A stretch of 64,000 bases of DNA from an uncultured bacterium (GTDB lineage Bacteria > Fidelibacterota > Marinisomatia > Marinisomatales > JACNKV01): NCBI GenBank assembly GCA_964422145.1, contig CAYQZV010000010.1, forward strand, positions 694 through 64,693. Direction: 5' to 3'. Below are positions 53,909-64,000 of this stretch, piece by piece. The position numbers were made by a program, and so were the translations under genes. The number at the start of each line of letters is the position of its first letter. The stretch's first letter is position 1. A model generated the notes under the pieces. It saw only the letters and a list, made by a program, of their open reading frames with translations, had not been told where the DNA came from and searched no databases.

Positions 53909-56272
53909 ATGAACTCTTTTTTCGTAATATATCAAAAAAATCCCTTAGCGTGGATTGTCTTATTTTTTATCGCAGGGATATATTTATCAACTGTCTATCC
54001 TGGAATAGCGCTTCCGATTTTAACAAGTTTAGTTTTGATCATTGGTTTATACATCTTAAGACGAACGGAATATGATATTATTTTTGTTCTGACAATTTTA
54101 TTATTTATTGGATGGGGATGGGCATCTTATTGTCAAATAGTTCAGAATAGCCATATAGAAAAAGTAGAGAAGAATCATAACAAGGATATCCGTTTTACCG
54201 GTGTGGTAACAGAAACAAAAGAAACAGAATATGGTGCTCGTTGTTTGTTAAGAAATGTGAATATGGAAACATCAACTACGGGTATAATTGATCGTTTCTC
54301 GCTGTTGCTATATTTAAAAGAAGAAATCCACTTTGGTTTTGGTGATACCCTGATCATTTCAGGTAAATATGTGAAATTAACTCCGGTTCGCAATCCGGGT
54401 TCGTTTGATTTTCGTTCTTGGGCGCATCGGCAAAAGATCTACGGAAAAATCCGAATTACTAATGAAGATGATATTGCAATTCGGTTCTCGGATGGAAAAG
54501 GATGGGAAAATAAACTCGAATCGGTTCGAGATGGAATCCGTTCACATCTTTCAAAATCGACTGATGGAAAAACAACCGGGATTTTGCTTGCGCTCATCCT
54601 TGGAGATAAATCAGACGTAGATCTTGAATTGAGAGAATCTTTTATCGAAACCGGAGTGATTCATGTGTTAGCAGTTTCAGGATTACATGTTGGTTATATT
54701 CTGCTGATATTGATGATCTTAACATCCATGCTGAGAATTCCGTGGGGATGGGATAGGGTTGTGATCATTATGGGGTTGGTTAGCTATGTTTTACTGACGG
54801 GAGGGAAACCGAGTGTATTAAGAGCATCTATTATGGCAGCTCTTTATGTGATCGCTCCGGTTGTAAATCGACCGAGAAGTATTTGGAATATCATTGCAGC
54901 TTCTGCGTTCATCATTCTTATTTCTAATCCGCATATGCTGTTTGATCTCGGTTTTCAATTAAGTTATTCCGCCGTGATCTCCATTGTCTATTTTTATAAT
55001 CTAATAGAAAACAATCTCACGGATAAACTTAAACCAAGTCATATTTCGAATACTGTTATCAGCAAAACATGGAGTTTATTCTTAGTCTCTTTCTCAGCAC
55101 AAATTGGAACATTATTATTTACCGTATTTTATTTTCATCGTATTCCGCTGATTTCCTTGATCGCAAACATCATTATTGTCCCTTTGATTGGAATAATGGT
55201 AGCTCTCGGGATATTAATATTGACAATCGGTTGGCTACCTTACTTTGGAACCATTATTGGGCAAACAGCCTGGTTAAATACACAGATCATCGATTGGTTT
55301 GCATCCTTCTTCAGTTCTTTGCCATTTGCATCTATTGAAATATTGCATACCGGGCCTCTCTTTTTCATCTTATATGGACTGGGTGTTTCGATATTTATCA
55401 TGGCTCTTCATCACAAACTACGTATGATTCAATACTTAGCAGGGATGGTGGTAGTTATCTTGATTTGGAATTGGGCTTTAAAACCAAACGATACTAATAT
55501 TCTCTTCCTGGACGTTGGACAAGGAGATGCAGCGATCATTCAATTTCAAGATGGACGCACGATGCTTATCGATGCAGGGCAGAAAGATCATTTCCAAGAT
55601 TATGGAGAACGTGTAGTGATCCCTGCAGCAAAGTATCTGGGTGTAGATCGTTTTAATTGGATTGTCTGGAGTCATCCGCATAATGATCATATTGGCGGAA
55701 TGAGTTCAATTTTGGAAACAATCCCTGTCGATACGGTTTGGGATACACATACAACTTACGGGTCTCGAAACTATAATTATCTTCTTGATCGAGTGAATAC
55801 AAAAAATATTGTATATCAGAGGCCGCACCGCGGAGATGTGATCATCCTTGATCATAAAACCTATATCCAAGTTTTATCTCCGGACTCTGTTTGGAGTAAA
55901 GGTCAAAAGAACATCAATAATGTCAGTTTAGTGATGCGTCTAGTTATTGGGGAAATTGAGTTTCTATTTACGGGAGATATTGAGAAAGAAGTTGACGAAA
56001 TGATCTTACCGTTTAAACATCATCTGAATTCAGATGTACTAAAGGTGGCTCATCATGGGTCTATTACCAGTACTACCGAAAAGGATTTATACTATATTCA
56101 ACCGAAAATTGCTGTGATTTCTGTAGGAGAGGGGAATAAATTCAAACATCCGTCTGAGGTTACAATAAAGCGATTAGAAGAAGCAGGAGCCATGATACAC
56201 CGAACTGACTTACAAGGAGCGCTATGGCTTCGAACAGATGGAAAACAAATAAAGGAAGTCCAATGGCAATAA
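53909..56272 (+). CDS. comEC: DNA internalization competence protein ComEC/Rec2
   Basis: RNPGSFDF; HVLAVSGLHV; FQLSY; metallo-beta-lactamase domain DVGQGDA, SHPHNDHIGG, LFTGD, KVAHHGS. Confidence 0.94.
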   Translation: MNSFFVIYQKNPLAWIVLFFIAGIYLSTVYPGIALPILTSLVLIIGLYILRRTEYDIIFVLTILLFIGWGWASYCQIVQNSHIEKVEKNHNKDIRFTGVVTETKETEYGARCLLRNVNMETSTTGIIDRFSLLLYLKEEIHFGFGDTLIISGKYVKLTPVRNPGSFDFRSWAHRQKIYGKIRITNEDDIAIRFSDGKGWENKLESVRDGIRSHLSKSTDGKTTGILLALILGDKSDVDLELRESFIETGVIHVLAVSGLHVGYILLILMILTSMLRIPWGWDRVVIIMGLVSYVLLTGGKPSVLRASIMAALYVIAPVVNRPRSIWNIIAASAFIILISNPHMLFDLGFQLSYSAVISIVYFYNLIENNLTDKLKPSHISNTVISKTWSLFLVSFSAQIGTLLFTVFYFHRIPLISLIANIIIVPLIGIMVALGILILTIGWLPYFGTIIGQTAWLNTQIIDWFASFFSSLPFASIEILHTGPLFFILYGLGVSIFIMALHHKLRMIQYLAGMVVVILIWNWALKPNDTNILFLDVGQGDAAIIQFQDGRTMLIDAGQKDHFQDYGERVVIPAAKYLGVDRFNWIVWSHPHNDHIGGMSSILETIPVDTVWDTHTTYGSRNYNYLLDRVNTKNIVYQRPHRGDVIILDHKTYIQVLSPDSVWSKGQKNINNVSLVMRLVIGEIEFLFTGDIEKEVDEMILPFKHHLNSDVLKVAHHGSITSTTEKDLYYIQPKIAVISVGEGNKFKHPSEVTIKRLEEAGAMIHRTDLQGALWLRTDGKQIKEVQWQ

Positions 56273-57195
56273 CAGCCGGAGTCGATGAAGCAGGAAGAGG
56301 ACCGTTAGCCGGTCCTGTTGTTGCAGCCGCCGTCATTTTACCGGATGATCATCCCATCGTAGGATTACGAGATTCAAAAAAACTCACTCCAAAGAAACGT
56401 GAGCATCTTTATGAAGAAATCCATCAGTTTGCTTCTGGAATCGGAGTAGGTATTATTGATGAAAAGGAAATTGATGCGACCAACATTCTGAAAGCAACTC
56501 ATAAAGCCATGCAGATCGCTTTAGGAAAGTTGGGCGTCCGGCCGGATAAAGCTTTGATCGACGGATATGCGTTACCAAACCAAGTCATCCCAAATGAAGG
56601 AATCATCGGAGGAGATAATAAAGTAGATTCCATCCGTGCGGCATCTATTATTGCAAAAGTGACGCGAGATCGTATCATGGAGCAATATGATGTTATTTTT
56701 CCGGAGTACGGATTTGTTAAACATAAAGGCTATGGCACGAAACAACACATGGAGTCTTTGAAACAACATAAAGCTTCTCCCATTCATCGAAAATCATTCC
56801 AACCGGTATCTGAATCATTACCTACCATGTCGTGGTTCAGGCAAAATCGGTTGATCGGATCACTTGGCGAACGTCTTGCAGCCGTGTATTTAGTTAATAA
56901 GGGCTATGCGGTAAGAGATATGAATGTACGGTGTCTGCCTTATGGAGAAATTGATATCATTGCCGAGAAAGATAAAACAATTGTTTTTATCGAAGTGAAA
57001 ACGATTTCTAAAGTATCAATTGGTTCACCGGAAGAGAAAGTTTCAGAATCTAAACTTGCGAAGCTGGAGCAAGCGATCCACAAATATTTACTTGAACATG
57101 AAATAAAAATGGATATCAGATTGGATGCGATTACTGTAAAAATTGAGAGTGGAAGTCACAAAATATCTCATTATAAAAATGTCGAATTGGATTAG
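56263..57195 (+). CDS. rnhB: Ribonuclease HII fused to a C-terminal YraN (UPF0102) nuclease domain
   Basis: GVDEAGRGPLAGPV, DSKKL, ASIIAKVTRD, HKGYGT, IHRKSF; then GSLGERLAAVYL...GEIDIIA...VFIEVKT...IRLDAI in the same frame. Confidence 0.92.
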   Translation: MAITAGVDEAGRGPLAGPVVAAAVILPDDHPIVGLRDSKKLTPKKREHLYEEIHQFASGIGVGIIDEKEIDATNILKATHKAMQIALGKLGVRPDKALIDGYALPNQVIPNEGIIGGDNKVDSIRAASIIAKVTRDRIMEQYDVIFPEYGFVKHKGYGTKQHMESLKQHKASPIHRKSFQPVSESLPTMSWFRQNRLIGSLGERLAAVYLVNKGYAVRDMNVRCLPYGEIDIIAEKDKTIVFIEVKTISKVSIGSPEEKVSESKLAKLEQAIHKYLLEHEIKMDIRLDAITVKIESGSHKISHYKNVELD

Positions 57196-57278
57196 ATTAA
57201 TTCACCAATGACATGAAATAAATTGCATGCTAAAATCTCAGAATAACCGTAATTTAAATACTTAAATAAAAGAGAACT

Positions 57279-58091
57279 ATGACAAAGAACTCATCGAACA
57301 GAACACTCGTAAATGTTTTAGGAATTCCAACCATTCTTTTCCTCATTTGGATAGGCGGTATTTTCTTTGCTTTGCTTATCACGGTAGCAATGCTGTATGC
57401 GATAAGAGAATTCTATTCAATGAACCGGAAACATGATACTTTTCCGACTATTTGGATAGGATGGCTTGCAACACTGATTATCGGCCATTTGTATTTTTAT
57501 CAGCCGTTGATAACCGCTGTGGAATTAGTTTCCGGTATCATTTTATTTATCGTGATTACGCTATTGATCGAATTATTCAAAAATAAGTCTAATCCGACTT
57601 GGAATGTAGGCGTAACTCTGATGGGAATCCTTTACGTCCCGGTTTTACTTGGGACATTAATCGCCCTGCGAGAAATGACGATGATCAATGGTTTGAACAT
57701 GACATTGAGTGTTATTCTGGGTATTTGGGCATGTGATTCCGTTGCATATTTCACCGGGAAAAAATGGGGAACCGTAAAGATATTTAAACGGGTTAGTCCA
57801 AAAAAATCAGTTGTTGGAAGTATCTCCGGACTATTAGGATCGTTTTTGGTATTTATCGTAGCAAAAGAATGGGGATTCTTACCGATTTCATGGTTTGATG
57901 TTATCATATTTACGGTTATTACGGGTGTTTTTGGTCAACTGGGCGATTTTACGGAATCTTTATTTAAACGGGATGCCGGAGTAAAAGACTCCGGGACCAT
58001 CCTTCAAGGACACGGCGGGATGCTAGATCGTTTCGATTCGCTGATCTTTGCCAGTCCGCTGGTCTACATTTATTTGAATTTGATTTACTGA
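57279..58091 (+). CDS. cdsA: Phosphatidate cytidylyltransferase
   Basis: VSPKKS; GDFTESLFKRDAGVKDSG; GHGGMLDRFDS; multiple TM segments. Confidence 0.95.
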   Translation: MTKNSSNRTLVNVLGIPTILFLIWIGGIFFALLITVAMLYAIREFYSMNRKHDTFPTIWIGWLATLIIGHLYFYQPLITAVELVSGIILFIVITLLIELFKNKSNPTWNVGVTLMGILYVPVLLGTLIALREMTMINGLNMTLSVILGIWACDSVAYFTGKKWGTVKIFKRVSPKKSVVGSISGLLGSFLVFIVAKEWGFLPISWFDVIIFTVITGVFGQLGDFTESLFKRDAGVKDSGTILQGHGGMLDRFDSLIFASPLVYIYLNLIY

Positions 58092-58104
58092 TTACAGGGA
58101 GATT

Positions 58105-59919
58105 ATGAAACTCAGATCTATTCTTGCCACGGATTGCGGCAGTACAACCACAAAAGCAATCCTAATTGAATATGTTGACGGTGAATACCGGTTACGCTTT
58201 CGAGGAGAAGCTCCGACGACCGTTGAAGCACCATTTGAAGATGTCACAAAAGGAGTGTTAAATGCGGTCGGTGAGGTCGAAGAGCTTTCCGGGCGTAAAT
58301 TGCTTAACGAAGGACAAATCCTTACACCGCAAAAAGAAGATGTCGGTGTCGATATTTATATTTCTACAAGCTCGGCAGGCGGCGGATTACAGATGATGGT
58401 TGCCGGTGTGGTGAAATCCATGACCGGAGAAAGTGCTGAACGTGCCGCTTTGGGCGCAGGATCAATCGTAATGGACGTTCTTGCAGCAAATGATGGAAGA
58501 ATGCCTCATGAAAAAATCCAACGGATACGGCAGCTTCGCCCTGATATGATATTACTGTCCGGAGGGATTGACGGCGGAACAACAAAACATGTTGTGGAAC
58601 TTGCAGAAATTTTACATGCTGCAAATCCGAGACCCCGCTTAGGTCAGGATTATAAACTGCCTGTGATTTTTGCCGGAAATAAAAATGCCCAAGGAGAGAT
58701 CGAAAAAACACTGGATGAGATGACAGATCTGACCGTCGTCGAAAATATTCGCCCCGTCCTTGAACGTGAAAATCTGAATCCTTCCAGAGATAAAATCCAT
58801 GACTTATTTATGGAACATGTGATGCAACAGGCACCCGGATATAAAAAATTAATGTCATGGACGGATGCACCTATTATGCCAACACCGGGTGCTGTAGGCT
58901 CATTGATTGAGATGATTGCCGAACAAGAGAAGATAAGCGTTGTTGGTGTTGACATTGGTGGTGCGACAACGGACATTTTTTCCGTATTCCAAGGGCAGTT
59001 TAACCGTACGGTGAGTGCGAATTTGGGTATGAGTTACTCGGTATGTAACGTACTGGCTGAAGCGGGAATGGAGAACGTTTTGCGCTGGGTGCCGTTTGAT
59101 ATCGATGAAAAAGAATTAAATAACCGGATCGGAAATAAGATGATCCGTCCAACTACCGTTCCACAATCCTTAGAAGAATTGGTGATTGAGCAGGCGATTG
59201 CACGCGAAGCACTTCGATTATCTTTCATTCAGCATAAAGCTTTTGCTGTGAACTTAAAAGGTGTCCAGAAAGAACGAACCATCTCAGATGCTTTTGAACA
59301 ATCTGAATCTGGAGAATCTCTTGTCGATATGATGGAATTAGATCTGCTTGTAGGATCCGGCGGGGTATTATCCCATGCTCCGAGACGTGAACAATCTGCA
59401 CGGATGCTGATCGATGCATTTTTACCCGTAGGAATTACTGAACTGGCAGTTGATTCGATCTTCATGATGCCGCAGTTAGGTGTTTTAGCCAATATTGAAA
59501 AAGATGAATTCAAAGAAGACGGCCGAAAAGCCGCAGTAGAAGTTTTTGAAAAAGATTGTTTGATCCGTTTAGGGACTTGTATTGCTCCTATAGGAAAATA
59601 TAAGTTAAACCAAACCGTGATGACGGCCGAGTTTACATTTTCTGACGGAAAAAAAGAACGATACGATGTGAACACCGGTGACTTGATCATGATAAAAATT
59701 CCATATGAACCAATTGAAGCTGTACTGACACCAGGACGTGGATACGATTTGGGTGCAGGTAAGGGAGAGATCATCAATACGACGGTTTACGGTGGTGTAA
59801 CCGGATTGATCTTAGACGGACGTGGAAGACCACTTGAACTTCCTGAAACCAAAGAAGAAAGAATCGCACATTTATCAAAATGGTCTAAAGAAACAAATGA
59901 GTATCCTGAACTCGGATAA
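58105..59919 (+). CDS. GlmL (glutamate mutase L)-like ASKHA/actin-fold ATPase, 604 aa
   Basis: Phosphate-1 motif DCGSTTTK; STSSAGGGL; LLSGGIDGG; MPTPGAV; phosphate-2 motif DIGGATTD; RTVSANLGM; GSGGVLSH. Confidence 0.8.
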   Translation: MKLRSILATDCGSTTTKAILIEYVDGEYRLRFRGEAPTTVEAPFEDVTKGVLNAVGEVEELSGRKLLNEGQILTPQKEDVGVDIYISTSSAGGGLQMMVAGVVKSMTGESAERAALGAGSIVMDVLAANDGRMPHEKIQRIRQLRPDMILLSGGIDGGTTKHVVELAEILHAANPRPRLGQDYKLPVIFAGNKNAQGEIEKTLDEMTDLTVVENIRPVLERENLNPSRDKIHDLFMEHVMQQAPGYKKLMSWTDAPIMPTPGAVGSLIEMIAEQEKISVVGVDIGGATTDIFSVFQGQFNRTVSANLGMSYSVCNVLAEAGMENVLRWVPFDIDEKELNNRIGNKMIRPTTVPQSLEELVIEQAIAREALRLSFIQHKAFAVNLKGVQKERTISDAFEQSESGESLVDMMELDLLVGSGGVLSHAPRREQSARMLIDAFLPVGITELAVDSIFMMPQLGVLANIEKDEFKEDGRKAAVEVFEKDCLIRLGTCIAPIGKYKLNQTVMTAEFTFSDGKKERYDVNTGDLIMIKIPYEPIEAVLTPGRGYDLGAGKGEIINTTVYGGVTGLILDGRGRPLELPETKEERIAHLSKWSKETNEYPELG

Positions 59920-59960
59920 AATTAGATAATTATTAAAATTAAGAAAAAGTTAAGTACATT

Positions 59961-61088
59961 ATGGCACATGCATATACACCCGGTTTAAAAGTTTTACACG
60001 AAGCAAAAGTAGTAAAGGAACGGCGACTCCCGCTAAGAGGGAATGTGGTTGTATCTGAAAATCAAATTCTATCTCCTGATGATATTGTTGCTACGACCAA
60101 TCTTCCGGGGAATGTTCGGATGGTGAATGTTGCGAATCTCTTGAATATCGATGCACAGGATATTCGTGAAGTGATGATTTTAAAAGAAGGTGATGAAGTC
60201 CAAAAAGACGGAATGATGGCAGAAACAAAAGGAATCTTTGGATTATTCAAATCACAAGCTGTATCTCCCATCGATGGTACGATCGAAGCGGTATCTGAAA
60301 TAACCGGACAAGTGACCCTTCGTGAAGCACCGATCCCTGTGGAAGTGGATGCTTACGTTTGCGGATGTTGTAAAGAAATATTACCTGATGAAGGTGTCAT
60401 GGTTGAAACCGATGCGGTTTTTATTCAAGGGATTTTCGGAATCGGCGGTGAGAACCGGGGAGATTTGAAAGTGGTTGTGGATTCAAGAGAAGACGCTTTG
60501 ACCGAAGATTTGCTCACACCGGATTTGAAAGGAAAAATAGTTGTCGGTGGATCCTTTATCAGTCTGGAAGCTTATAAAAAAGCGATGGATTTGGAAATCG
60601 CCGGAATCGTCATCGGCGGATTTAATTACCATGATCTTGAAGACATTTTAGGGTATACGTTAGGAGTTGCCATCACCGGTTCAGAGGATCTGCCAACTTC
60701 ACTTATTGTTACTGAAGGGTATGGAAATATTCGAATGGGAAGTCGGACGTATGATCTGCTTAAACAGCATGAAGGAAAATTTGCTTCCGTCAACGGAGCT
60801 ACCCAGATACGAGCGGGAGTGATTCGACCGGAGATTGTGATTCCATTATCCGAAGATGAATTAAAGGGGGACCATAAAGATATCCACGCGTCGGAAGGAA
60901 TTCAACCGGGGAGTATCGTCCGTGTTATTCGTGCTCCATACTTCGGAAGAATGGGAACGGTATCCGCATTACCTGCACCGCTGCAGAAAATGGAATCTGA
61001 GACGATGGTTCGAGTAGCTGAGGTTGAAATTGACGGAGAGAATATTTTGATTCCGCGTGCAAACCTTGAGATGGTTGAAACGGATTGA
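59961..61088 (+). CDS. Conserved-looking hypothetical protein with barrel-sandwich-hybrid-like N-part and C-terminal KOW-like motif
   Basis: LKEGDEVQKDGMMA...SPIDGTIEAV (hybrid-motif pattern); IQGIFGIGGE; TEGYG; IQPGSIVRVIRAPYFGRMGTV (KOW-like). Confidence 0.7.
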   Translation: MAHAYTPGLKVLHEAKVVKERRLPLRGNVVVSENQILSPDDIVATTNLPGNVRMVNVANLLNIDAQDIREVMILKEGDEVQKDGMMAETKGIFGLFKSQAVSPIDGTIEAVSEITGQVTLREAPIPVEVDAYVCGCCKEILPDEGVMVETDAVFIQGIFGIGGENRGDLKVVVDSREDALTEDLLTPDLKGKIVVGGSFISLEAYKKAMDLEIAGIVIGGFNYHDLEDILGYTLGVAITGSEDLPTSLIVTEGYGNIRMGSRTYDLLKQHEGKFASVNGATQIRAGVIRPEIVIPLSEDELKGDHKDIHASEGIQPGSIVRVIRAPYFGRMGTVSALPAPLQKMESETMVRVAEVEIDGENILIPRANLEMVETD

Positions 61089-61095
61089 TTACCAA

Positions 61096-61425
61096 ATGAT
61101 AAATACAGTGAACCAACCGGATATAGCACAAATACAGACAGAAGACAGTGCGGATATTTTATTTATCCGGAGGGTAGCAAAACGAATCTATGATTCAGGT
61201 TTCGTCACACCCGCTGTATTTTTTTTGGAAATGAGCAAACCGCTTGCCTTATTGGGTAGTCATGCGATGGTGTTTTTCGGTCCGATCATTTCAGCTTTTA
61301 TCAATGCTGAAGGTTATTATAAAGCGGCAGAAATTTTTGAAGAACCTAAAAATGTTGAAAAATTAATTGAAGAAATCGAGAGATTTGCTGCAGATGAGAA
61401 AAAAACAGAGACATCAAATCAATGA
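61096..61425 (+). CDS. Small hypothetical protein of the GlmL-like cluster
   Basis: Starts 7 nt after the previous stop; VTPAVFFLEMSKPL; one moderately hydrophobic stretch. Confidence 0.65.
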   Translation: MINTVNQPDIAQIQTEDSADILFIRRVAKRIYDSGFVTPAVFFLEMSKPLALLGSHAMVFFGPIISAFINAEGYYKAAEIFEEPKNVEKLIEEIERFAADEKKTETSNQ

Positions 61426-61464
61426 TCTGTTTCATTTCTGCAGTATTAAACATAAGGAGAACCA

Positions 61465-62328
61465 ATGAAAGATAAACAATTTTGGATCACAGGTGCGGTG
61501 TTAACCGTCGCCTTTTTGATCTATTGGATCTTGGGACATCCCGGATTCAACAGTGACCGGATTGTCATGTTCATTGCGATTGTCATCATGGCTGGTACAT
61601 TGCTGTACTATATCCGTATGGCACATCGCGGGGACAAATTTTTTCTGCGCACAATCCCGGGTTTGAAAGCCGTCGAAGAAGCGGTCGGACGATCCACAGA
61701 GATGGGAAAACCGGTTTTATACGTTCCGGGTATTATGGATATGGATCAGGTTGAGACTGTCGCCGGGGTGATCGTTCTTGGACACGTTGCCAAGATGACC
61801 GCACGGTATGAAACGTCACTCAATGTGCCTGTTTCACGGTCCATCGTGATGAAAGCCGGAAGGGAAGCGGTACGGGAATCGTACACACTTGAAGGCCGCC
61901 CGGATTTATTTCATGAGGACATCGTGCATTATCTGACAGATGACCAGTTTGCTTATGCCGCAGGGGTGAACGGAATCATGAATCGGGAAAAGCCCGCAGC
62001 ATGTTTATATATGGGTAAATTTTTCGCCGAATCGCTTATTCTTGCTGAAACTGGGAACTCAATCGGTGCTATCCAAATCGCCGGAACAGCTTCTCAGTCC
62101 CAGATCCCTTTCTTTGTCACAGCCTGTGACTACACACTTATTGGTGAGGAATTTTTTGCAGCGAGTGCTTACTTGTCCCAAAAACCCGAATTGCTTGGTG
62201 GAGTCAAAGGACAAGATATGCTGAAAGCCGGGATCACATTTGCGATTATTCTCGCGGTTATTTTTAGACTTCTCCACGATCTGGGATGGATCTCATGGAG
62301 CGTCACAAACTTTTTAACGGTACAATAG
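61465..62328 (+). CDS. DUF6754-like membrane protein
   Basis: AAGGAG RBS; two N-terminal TMs; LRTIPGLKAVEEAVGRSTEMGKPVLYVPG; PFFVTACDYTLIGEEFFAASAYLS; C-terminal TM. Family name is from recall. Confidence 0.7.
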   Translation: MKDKQFWITGAVLTVAFLIYWILGHPGFNSDRIVMFIAIVIMAGTLLYYIRMAHRGDKFFLRTIPGLKAVEEAVGRSTEMGKPVLYVPGIMDMDQVETVAGVIVLGHVAKMTARYETSLNVPVSRSIVMKAGREAVRESYTLEGRPDLFHEDIVHYLTDDQFAYAAGVNGIMNREKPAACLYMGKFFAESLILAETGNSIGAIQIAGTASQSQIPFFVTACDYTLIGEEFFAASAYLSQKPELLGGVKGQDMLKAGITFAIILAVIFRLLHDLGWISWSVTNFLTVQ

Positions 62329-62338
62329 GAGGGATATC

Positions 62339-63157
62339 ATGCTTTGGAAAAGACAAATACCAATTCTCATTGTCACTGTTGTTGGATTCTTGACCTTATT
62401 CGGTTGGTTCATTGAAAATCCAACGATTGAATCCTTTGTCAATGATGATGCAACACAATGGTATGACATCCTTGCGAGTTTTGCGATCATTCTGGGTGCA
62501 TTGAACTTACTGAAATTGCAGGGGCGGAAGATTATTAAAAAGCAATCAGGATGGTTCTACAGTATTTTTGCCATCGGAGGATTTATTTTTGCGATGACCG
62601 CCGGATTCATTGTTAAGGGAAGTGAAACCGTGGCATGGGGTTCCCATGTAACGAGTGAAGGAACACTCTTCAAATGGATGTTCGAATTCATGTTCACACC
62701 CCTCTCAGCTACGATGTTCGCGCTGTTGGCTTTCTTCGTAGCGTCAGCATCGTACAGAGCTTTCAGAATCCGCAATTTTGAAGCCACTTTGCTGCTGGTT
62801 TCAGGAATTATCATCATGCTTGGGCGCGTCCCTCTTGGAAGCAGCATTTCATCTTGGTTTGTGATGTATCTCCTTGTCTTGATCGCTGGGATTGCTGTGA
62901 ATGCCAAGTGGGCCAATAAGCAGATCACCTTTGGAGTTGTCCTTGCCGGCGTTGTGATCGTAACGATTGCCGGAGTAATGACAGGATGGCCTCTGGATCA
63001 GCCGGGAATCTTTTACCTGCCTATCCTTCAAGAGTGGATTTATAATAACCCCAATGTTGCCGGTGCTCGTGCGATTATGATCGGTATCGGATTGGGAATT
63101 TTTGCAACCTCGATTCGATATATTCTTGGAATCGAAAAATCTTATATCGGGGAGTAA
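62339..63157 (+). CDS. Polytopic membrane protein of unknown function
   Basis: GGAGG RBS; about 8 hydrophobic segments; PLSATMFALLAFFVASASYRAFR; AGARAIMIGIGLG. Confidence 0.75.
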   Translation: MLWKRQIPILIVTVVGFLTLFGWFIENPTIESFVNDDATQWYDILASFAIILGALNLLKLQGRKIIKKQSGWFYSIFAIGGFIFAMTAGFIVKGSETVAWGSHVTSEGTLFKWMFEFMFTPLSATMFALLAFFVASASYRAFRIRNFEATLLLVSGIIIMLGRVPLGSSISSWFVMYLLVLIAGIAVNAKWANKQITFGVVLAGVVIVTIAGVMTGWPLDQPGIFYLPILQEWIYNNPNVAGARAIMIGIGLGIFATSIRYILGIEKSYIGE

Positions 63158-64000
63158 ATGATGAAATATCTAAGTGAATTAATCTTACAATTAGGAAAAG
63201 TAGATCGCAGATGGATCTTCCTGATTATTGCTCTTGTAGTATTATTGCCGTTGTTTTTCCCGATTGGGCTGCCTATCCGTCCAACGGATTCAACTCAAAC
63301 CGCTTATAATGCGATGGATGAACTCGAACCCGATTCGAAAGTATTGATTTCGTTTGAATACGGCCCCAGTACAAAACCGGAAATTCATCCCATGACTTTC
63401 GCCATTCTTCGGCATCTGTTCTCCAAAGGACACAAAGTTTATATCACGTGTCTCTGGCCGGACGGACAGTTCATGGCTGAAGATGCTATCGAGCAGATCG
63501 CTGAAAATGAATTTAACCTGACCTACGGTGAGGATTATGTCCTTTTGGGATTCCGTCCGGGAAATGAAGCGGTTATAAAAGGGATCGTCAGCAATATGCG
63601 GAAACTCTATACGACTGATGCTCGCGGTAATTTGGTGGATGATATCCCATTGATGAAAGATGTGAATCAATTAGCTGATTTTGATTTTATCTTCTCTGCA
63701 TCAGCAGGATTCCCCGGAACCGTTGAATGGGTTCAATACGGTGCGGATCCGACCGGTGTTCCGATGAGTACAGGTGTGACATCGATCCAAGTGAACGAAG
63801 TGATGCCTTATGTGCAAAGCGGACAGGTTAACGGTATTTTAGCCGGGATGCCGGGTGCAGCAGAATATGAAGCGCTTGTGGGTGTTCCCGGTATTGGTAC
63901 CAGCGGGATGGATGCCCAATCGGTTGCGCATTTAGTGATTGTACTTTTCATTGTTTTTGGTAATATCGCGTTTTTCATTGAACGCGGACGACAGAAAAAA
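63158..64000 (+). CDS. Membrane-anchored hypothetical protein (stop lies beyond the window)
   Basis: Not in the ORF track; hand translation MMKYLSELILQLGKVDRRWIFLIIALVVLLPLFFPIGLP...FEYGPSTKPEIHP...YGEDYVLLGFRPG...EWVQYG...PYVQSGQVNGILAGMPGAAEYEAL...MDAQSVAHLVIVLFIVFGNIAFF; open for 281 codons. Confidence 0.8.
   Translation, partial: MMKYLSELILQLGKVDRRWIFLIIALVVLLPLFFPIGLPIRPTDSTQTAYNAMDELEPDSKVLISFEYGPSTKPEIHPMTFAILRHLFSKGHKVYITCLWPDGQFMAEDAIEQIAENEFNLTYGEDYVLLGFRPGNEAVIKGIVSNMRKLYTTDARGNLVDDIPLMKDVNQLADFDFIFSASAGFPGTVEWVQYGADPTGVPMSTGVTSIQVNEVMPYVQSGQVNGILAGMPGAAEYEALVGVPGIGTSGMDAQSVAHLVIVLFIVFGNIAFFIERGRQKK

Follow-up and report, generated by a model that had tools for sequence, protein, structure and literature searches.

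A conserved gene module encoding a long-form GlmL/MutL-family ATPase and membrane proteins, independent of glutamate mutase, in Marinisomatota

A seven-gene cluster downstream of cdsA

Analysis of a 64,000-nucleotide (nt) stretch of DNA from an uncultured bacterium of the order Marinisomatales (contig CAYQZV010000010.1 of assembly GCA_964422145.1, positions 694 to 64,693; hereafter the window) uncovered a run of plus-strand genes encoding an ATPase of the GlmL/MutL family, a soluble partner and several membrane proteins. Gene A (58105..59919) encodes a long-form ASKHA ATPase of 604 amino acids (aa) that matches PF13941 (E 1e-123), and is followed by gene B (59961..61088), which encodes its soluble 375-aa partner with weak KOW and RnfC_N matches, and by gene C (61096..61425), whose product of 109 aa (counted from ATG) has a single hydrophobic segment by hydropathy and no Pfam family. 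Gene D (61465..62328) encodes a 287-aa DUF6754 protein (PF20539, E 1e-113), gene E (62339..63157) a 272-aa protein that is polytopic by hydropathy, and gene F (63158..64000, its end 6 nt beyond the window) a 282-aa protein in which two transmembrane (TM) helices flank an alpha/beta domain. No family was found for E in Pfam, NCBIfam or the PDB, or for F by Pfam or PDB profile search.

The gene immediately upstream of A is cdsA (57279..58091, plus strand), a phosphatidate cytidylyltransferase gene (PF01148, E 2e-59) that we treat as a neighbour of the module and not as a member. From cdsA to F, the successive gaps measure 13, 41, 7, 39, 10 and 0 nt. A preliminary description of this DNA had listed six co-oriented genes after cdsA, with open reading frames, lengths and gaps that all agree with our re-analysis. 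Its statement that no terminator lies between them also holds, as no terminator-like site was found in any intergenic gap of the cdsA-F stretch; the terminator-like matches on the plus strand sit within genes, and their total of 11 against 8.9 ± 2.9 expected corresponds to chance. The cluster had been said to continue past the window, and retrieval of the downstream genes bore this out: gene G, a seventh module member encoding a polytopic membrane protein of 276 aa, starts 17 nt after F in the source genome (G000 C10:64717-65547, outside the window). Genes A-G are each single-copy in that genome.

The seven genes are inherited together

Genome-wide profiling covered A, B, D and G in 151 Marinisomatota genomes, which as kin are not independent of one another; A was counted as present above the PF13941 cut-off, and 8 further genomes with weak sub-cut-off matches were dropped. 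Genes A and B are each present in 99 genomes, D in 98 and G in 100, with all four in 98/151, none in 51/151 and a partial set in only two genomes (G088 and G080), each of which consists of ~360 contigs. Losses of the module recur across several genera and whole families, and in a genus with genomes of 0.8–1.1 Mb it is kept in 11 of 12. Whether the cluster genes co-occur elsewhere had been set beforehand as a test that could refute the cluster as a unit, and what was found is strict joint presence or loss across the 151 genomes.

Gene order gives a similar picture. The order A-B-C-D-E-F-G is kept in 41/41 informative loci outside Cloacimonadota (those with 6 kb or more of sequence after A; 57 fetched), and Cloacimonadota-type loci carry C-A-B alone in 11/11 informative cases (23 fetched). 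In four Cloacimonadota genomes the A-B and D-G modules are unlinked, with three D copies each and two copies of A, one standard and one a diverged A'B' fusion; the three Cloacimonadota genomes whose loci were read hold two copies of the D-E-F-G cassette and one additional D. Distant metagenome loci (L115/L122, L153, L165, L177 and L178) contain the complete set of seven in five different arrangements; L153, L165 and L177 among them look archaeal. Relatives also occur in Cloacimonadota, Zixibacteria, Eremiobacterota, Planctomycetota and Hydrothermota. When metagenomes were scanned with distant B sequences, 80 loci were recovered, of which 44 contain A, 15 C, 9 D, 11 E, 10 F and 10 G. The small share of D-G speaks against obligatory linkage, although many of the contigs are of short length and an unlinked arrangement of the modules does occur. 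In one Marinisomatota genome (G105), a block that by eye resembles a restriction-modification system separates D from E (L084:1188-7535).

Gene A is a long form distinct from GlmL and lacks a mutase partner

Gene A exceeds the PF13941 gathering threshold of 27 by a wide margin (413.8 bits) and falls under all three related NCBIfam cut-offs (NF040745, 227.5 versus 475; TIGR01319, 158.4 versus 204.05; NF040744, 209.3 versus 600), models that nonetheless match 44/44 aligned long forms. It has the ASKHA fold; the phosphate-1 and phosphate-2 motifs, earlier reported as intact, are so, as is the adenosine motif. In these nucleotide motifs and in family A resembles GlmL/MutL, which is the accessory protein of glutamate (methylaspartate) mutase, and Or-4, a protein of ornithine degradation, but mean identity to true GlmL/Or-4 proteins (n = 3) is 27–32% over ~460 residues, against a mean of 59% among the 44 long forms. 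The long forms make up their own clade (FastTree support 0.96, with three short outgroups only), read RTVSANLG where the short GlmL/Or-4 forms read RTVEGD(I/L)G, and exceed GlmL by ~140 C-terminal residues, the C-terminal part being a beta domain. Residues ~100–250 are modelled as an inserted flavodoxin/REC-like domain (Z about 10–11). A profile search of the PDB with A gave no meaningful match, and no relatives of A were found in phages.

Glutamate mutase, the absence of which had been remarked on in the preliminary description, is neither encoded downstream nor co-occurs with the module. Neither glmS nor glmE was found in the window or in the source genome (94.5% complete), and A is never next to either gene in the loci read, in contrast to true GlmL loci. 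The sole GlmE-profile match in the source genome is a sub-cut-off hit to methylmalonyl-CoA mutase (MCM), and the one B12-binding domain it encodes forms a stand-alone protein of 134 aa, which we read as the MCM small subunit. MCM is split in this genome between two large-subunit paralogues (G000 C2:196859-198358 and C9:2056-3597) and a B12-binding subunit (C1:125475-125879), and most genomes of the same order also have two large-subunit matches. Of the 151 genomes, a single one (G133) has glmE, and it lacks the module; lysine aminomutase (PF09043, a profile that presumably also detects ornithine aminomutase) is present in none, the same profile being positive in 4/5 control genomes. As for Or-4, A lies under the NF040744 cut-off and the aminomutase partner was not found. 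Conversely, the obligatory companions of A, namely B and the membrane module, have no homologues at 3/3 true GlmL/Or-4 loci. Together, A-G are one conserved unit independent of glutamate mutase.

These data also bear on a role for A as a helper of another B12 enzyme, either as a reactivase of MCM or, with D-G, in cobalamin uptake and delivery. MCM is present in 100/100 genomes with module genes, and near B in 3/80 metagenome loci lie genes that we take to be MCM-like. The insert of A resembles flavodoxin-like folds that include the B12-binding subunit 4r3u_D (Z 9.8), and its homologues MutL/GlmL are described as a reactivation chaperone in PMC4682846. However, MCM is also present in 42/51 genomes without the module (142/151 overall), the insert match is level with those to REC and flavodoxin domains, and the distributions of glmE, lysine aminomutase and B-G given above run against the idea, which we therefore hold to be very improbable.

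Gene B is fused to A in several lineages

The layout of B, drawn from weak matches, comprises a barrel-sandwich hybrid, a swivelling-type alpha/beta domain and a KOW domain; its PDB profile matches are to the KOW domain of NusG/Spt5 (E 0.003), lipoyl domains (E 0.13) and RraA (E 1.2). The B family numbers 2306 clusters at 50% identity. No conserved histidine was found in the aligned B sequences, in an alignment (A11) where ~5–8 B residues per row are out of place. Natural A+B fusions occur in several lineages, and one of them (L081, 993 aa) gave a model with a predicted local distance difference test score (pLDDT) of 89.3 and a predicted template modelling score (pTM) of 0.88, a confidence that predicts a defined arrangement of A and B.

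Further variants of the pair were seen. The second, diverged A'B' fusion of Cloacimonadota (L195:7115-10036, L196:2468-5377, L197:1527-4418 and L198:6954-9482) has a duplicated hybrid region in its B part and ends short of the KOW domain. Tandem paralogous pairs in the arrangement X-A'-B'-C-A-B are found in L139, L143, L144, L154 and L153, with a B' of ~450 aa that carries an extra hybrid motif, and the phosphate-1 motif of the second A is degenerate in L153. These tandem pairs suggest a heteromeric ATPase module. The gene X of this arrangement (~140 aa, with a hydrophobic N-terminal part and a weak bacterial PH-domain match, E 0.006) is encoded just ahead of C or A in several lineages (L081:5538-5987, L085:4773-5198, L087:8928-9344, L088:6322-6762 and L178:7321-7740), and was not found in the source genome.

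Fold comparisons place A among both enzymes and scaffolds

Fold searches were run with the A+B fusion model, and the ASKHA part filled their match lists. The top Foldseek matches are NMHase (9h03, E 9e-10), acetone carboxylase (5svc/5m45), Apc (5l9w) and caprolactamase (6yra), all with TM-scores of ~0.2. The VIA ranking is led by FtsA (Z 13.5–14.1), followed by the benzoyl-CoA reductase ATPase 9gai (13.0), acetone carboxylase (12.4–12.9), HgdC-type activators (12.3–12.8) and PilM (12.1–12.3), with DdrA also close. The longest VIA alignments, of 351–355 residues, are those to acetone carboxylase.

The ATP subunits of hydantoinase A, oxoprolinase and the acetone carboxylases activate their substrates by phosphorylation. 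Given that this group, with the acetophenone carboxylase subunit, supplies the best Foldseek matches and the longest VIA alignments, the module could be a membrane-bound, ATP-dependent enzyme in which A would phosphorylate an amide, lactam or carboxyl substrate and D-G would deliver it or complete the reaction, possibly by group translocation. A match of A to PF01968 above the cut-off (28.4 versus 22.9 bits) points the same way, but it spans only 41 residues, the TM-scores are low and FtsA is ahead by VIA (Z 14.1). Moreover, no hydantoinase-B-type catalytic partner is found among the seven genes (Pfam on A-F; G and the gene after it encode membrane proteins), the module having membrane subunits in its place. 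We regard an enzyme of this kind as unlikely.

FtsA, PilM and DdrA, also ASKHA ATPases, have other proteins as their targets, and two of the three work at membranes. Their VIA scores with A (1e4f, 5eou and 2d0o; Z 11.3–14.1) raise the prospect of a module for envelope biogenesis or protein export, with A as a nucleotide-bound scaffold like PilM or FtsA and with exported domains of the membrane subunits chaperoning cargo. The high conservation of A would fit such a role. Yet the scores for FtsA and PilM are level with those of unrelated ASKHA proteins such as 9gai and the HgdC-type activators, FtsA, PilM and DdrA have neither B nor DUF6754, and the insert of A is flavodoxin-like. Whole families have lost the module, which is missing from 51/151 genomes, and no recurrent outer-membrane or pilin genes were seen among its neighbours. 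A role in envelope assembly or export thus appears doubtful.

Membrane subunits of the module

Searches of the PDB with profiles of D, E, F and G returned nothing meaningful, and none of the four matched a solved structure or a characterised family. ESM Atlas searches yielded own-family clusters only. D is a firm member of PF20539 (378.8 bits, gathering threshold 27), a family without assigned function. Its AlphaFold2 model (pLDDT 92.7) starts with two TM helices, continues with a Rossmann-like domain of six strands and closes with a third TM helix. Fold matches of this model are generic, with VIA Z of 8.8–10.3 that is equal for GT-B, Sir2, RCK and transhydrogenase dIII folds, and Foldseek gave nothing at E ≤ 0.001; a DHS-like NAD/FAD-binding domain was considered and was not singled out by either search. 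One motif of D we take to be ETF/transhydrogenase-like. Its invariant polar residues (R62, R76, E79, R174, E195, C221, D222, E228, E229 and K254) are many, which would suit the enzyme discussed above. No D relatives were found in viral contigs or plasmids.

Among the 120 long-form D relatives listed of 1359, all but five have an N-terminal extension, mostly with a signal-like start as judged by eye, which places the Rossmann-like core of D in the cytoplasm by prediction. Some relatives carry exported FN3, PQQ-type propeller or peptidyl-prolyl isomerase (PPIase) domains; specific DUF6754 fusions include a parvulin PPIase (P0364) and a PQQ/BamB propeller (P0302), and P0272 and P0276 have ~250–290 unannotated C-terminal residues. 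No natural fusions among D-G were seen in these 120 matches. The PPIase, BamB-like propeller and FN3 domains are the ones that would chaperone cargo in an export system, while for an enzyme such variable exported domains are a poorer fit than for capture or sensing.

Sensing would be the task of D if the module were a transmembrane signalling system, with D and its variable ectodomains as receptor and A-B as a nucleotide switch read out through the KOW domain of B. Several D paralogues with different ectodomains in one genome speak for this, as does the KOW domain itself. The window's own D, however, lacks an ectodomain, the module includes no gene for a DNA-binding or kinase output, and two polytopic subunits exceed the needs of a receptor, so that signalling seems improbable.

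The remaining membrane proteins are less readily compared. E has 8 hydrophobic segments in the window protein and 5–6 in compact relatives, with 4064 homologues at E ≤ 0.001 out of 7995 candidates. In F, Lys/Arg-rich N- and C-terminal tails flank the two TM helices, so the alpha/beta domain is predicted to be periplasmic, and a conserved N-terminal DRR motif is predicted to be cytoplasmic, a feature that an envelope or export scaffold could use. Conserved charged or polar residues (L107 numbering) are R141, E149 and R201 in E and D27, N28, E35, R192 and R199 in G, and no Cys or His is conserved at ≥90% in E (54 sequences) or G (51 sequences). Unlike Rnf/Nqr, E and G have no conserved Cys/His cofactor ligands, and only the hybrid motif of B resembles RnfC_N. 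E and G are predicted to be the helical core of a membrane complex. Profile comparison did not support an inverted-paralogue relation of D to F and of E to G (probability ≤1.5%), and we did not adopt this idea; the shared-looking loops of E and G are also both cytoplasmic by the positive-inside rule, against inversion. C adjoins A-B in 11/11 informative Cloacimonadota loci and D-G, apart from A-B, in L088 and L099, making it a candidate adaptor between ATPase and membrane modules on the strength of its gene placement.

Genomic context of the module

The preliminary description had proposed a link to lipid or envelope modification through cdsA, a proposal that comparison across loci did not support. 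In favour of a lipid-modifying complex acting with CdsA, cdsA lies 13 nt upstream here and upstream of A in most Marinisomatota loci; plsX- and fabH-type genes also follow G in one distant locus (L145). But cdsA adjoins A in Marinisomatota only, is absent from the A loci of Cloacimonadota, does not appear among the neighbours listed for 22 distant loci, and is often parted from A by the oppABC operon in several families. It also diverges much faster, with a median identity to its orthologues of 47% against 57–79% for the module genes (58 loci picked by likeness to A). A CdsA-linked lipid function is therefore extremely unlikely.

In several lineages the context is peptide-related. The module is nested in or beside an opp operon, with oppB and oppC in 8 Marinisomatota loci and oppD in 23 loci, and sits between oppABC and oppD in several families of the phylum. 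A dipeptide-epimerase-like gene of the enolase family lies beside it in L088 and L099, and peptidases of families C26, S58, M20 and M24 lie near it in L139, L143, L162 and L168.

Other features were recorded around the module. In 25–28 Marinisomatota loci (L004-L098) an aldehyde dehydrogenase and a class-III aminotransferase gene are found nearby, a pair that we presume to belong to lysine catabolism (Pcd/Lat), and L083 has a saccharopine-dehydrogenase-like pair. The gene after G, near the contig end, is MarC-like by our assumption. Upstream of cdsA, a gene at 56224-57195 of the window (plus strand) encodes what we take, from its motifs, to be an RNase HII-like protein with a fused YraN-like domain at its C-terminal end, beginning near residue 200, and its 310-aa homologue is present in L001-L003. 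The gap between this rnhB gene and cdsA holds a putative extended -10 sigma-70-like site (57208..57236, plus strand; 10/12 matches with TG), the best plus-strand promoter-like site of the region. Sigma-70-like sites total 18 in the region against 27 ± 5.2 in shuffles, and since they are rarer than in shuffles, the match is no evidence of function; it is a possible, weak candidate for an operon promoter.

A proposed ATP-driven membrane complex

The preliminary description had proposed an undescribed ATP-driven membrane machine. Of this, the conserved unit is borne out and no functional description of the cluster was found; the machine is our best explanation of it. Co-inheritance, gene order, A-B fusion, retention in small genomes and duplicated cassettes together argue for a motor, and A-B are probably coupled physically to D-E-F-G as an ATP-dependent membrane complex. 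A and its partner B would form a cytoplasmic motor driving an inner-membrane complex of D, E, F and G. As it binds and hydrolyses ATP, A-B would take hold of the Rossmann-like domain of D on the cytoplasmic side and let it go again, perhaps with C as an intermediary; this would run the E/G core through its cycle, and substrate would be captured outside by F and by the variable domains that D exports. The grip-and-release cycle is modelled by analogy on ASKHA proteins of the DdrA/GlmL type.

Import is favoured by exported domains that can be swapped and cassettes that multiply, by the placement in or beside opp operons, and by the peptidase and epimerase neighbours elsewhere. We tentatively suggest that the module may import peptides or amino-acid derivatives. 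A cultured member of the phylum, Fidelibacter multiformis IA91, is reported to live on muropeptides and to use neither peptone nor casamino acids (PMC11652737); were it to carry and express the module, import of cell-wall peptides would become likelier and generic peptide import less so. It is also conceivable, and worth serious consideration, that it represents a new class of primary active transporter driven by an actin-fold ATPase and distinct from ABC, P-type and F/V ATPases, in which a reactivase-type cycle of prying partners apart would have been repurposed to move solutes through D-E-F-G, a complex with exchangeable exported domains for capture. ECF (energy-coupling factor) and ABC importers offer a working analogy, as their cytoplasmic ATPase module can be encoded apart from the membrane cassettes or duplicated with them; unlike in those systems, no P-loop ABC_tran or permease match was found in A-F (Pfam, NCBIfam) or in a G homologue.

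Several observations weigh against this transporter proposal. No subunit resembles a known transporter in Pfam, NCBIfam or PDB profile searches, and the top Foldseek rank of hydantoinase and acetone-carboxylase ATP subunits would favour a chemical over a mechanical role. MCM accompanies the module in every one of the 100 genomes. D-G are reachable in only 9–11/80 distant-B loci, and in 5–7/30 loci of at least 12 kb, so that A-B may act alone or be unlinked from them. No peptide gene flanks the module in the source genome, neighbours are unrelated at many loci (L112, L115, L122, L145 and L178), and the counts of peptide neighbours are purely descriptive, most Marinisomatota loci being kin whose context is partly shared by descent.

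Implications

Literature searches, with subscription journals outside their coverage, found no description of the module and no paper naming DUF6754 or PF13941, so that the cluster does not appear to have been characterised already. As far as searched, the module is undescribed, and it is conserved and real. The 'glutamate mutase L' label on the long form is misleading and can lead to glutamate fermentation being assigned in error. Dtur_1345-1347 of Dictyoglomus turgidum, named 'glutamate mutase' in PMC5167688, might be a further instance of this system. The set is retained by two-thirds of the Marinisomatota in the sample, highly streamlined marine genomes among them. If an ASKHA ATPase does drive a transporter or membrane enzyme here, this would be a new energy-coupling principle, and it may explain the uptake of organic nitrogen by these organisms. 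Should the module prove to be a new transporter class, it would be one that is widespread in abundant uncultured phyla, possibly including archaea, and that is kept even at a genome size of 0.8 Mb.

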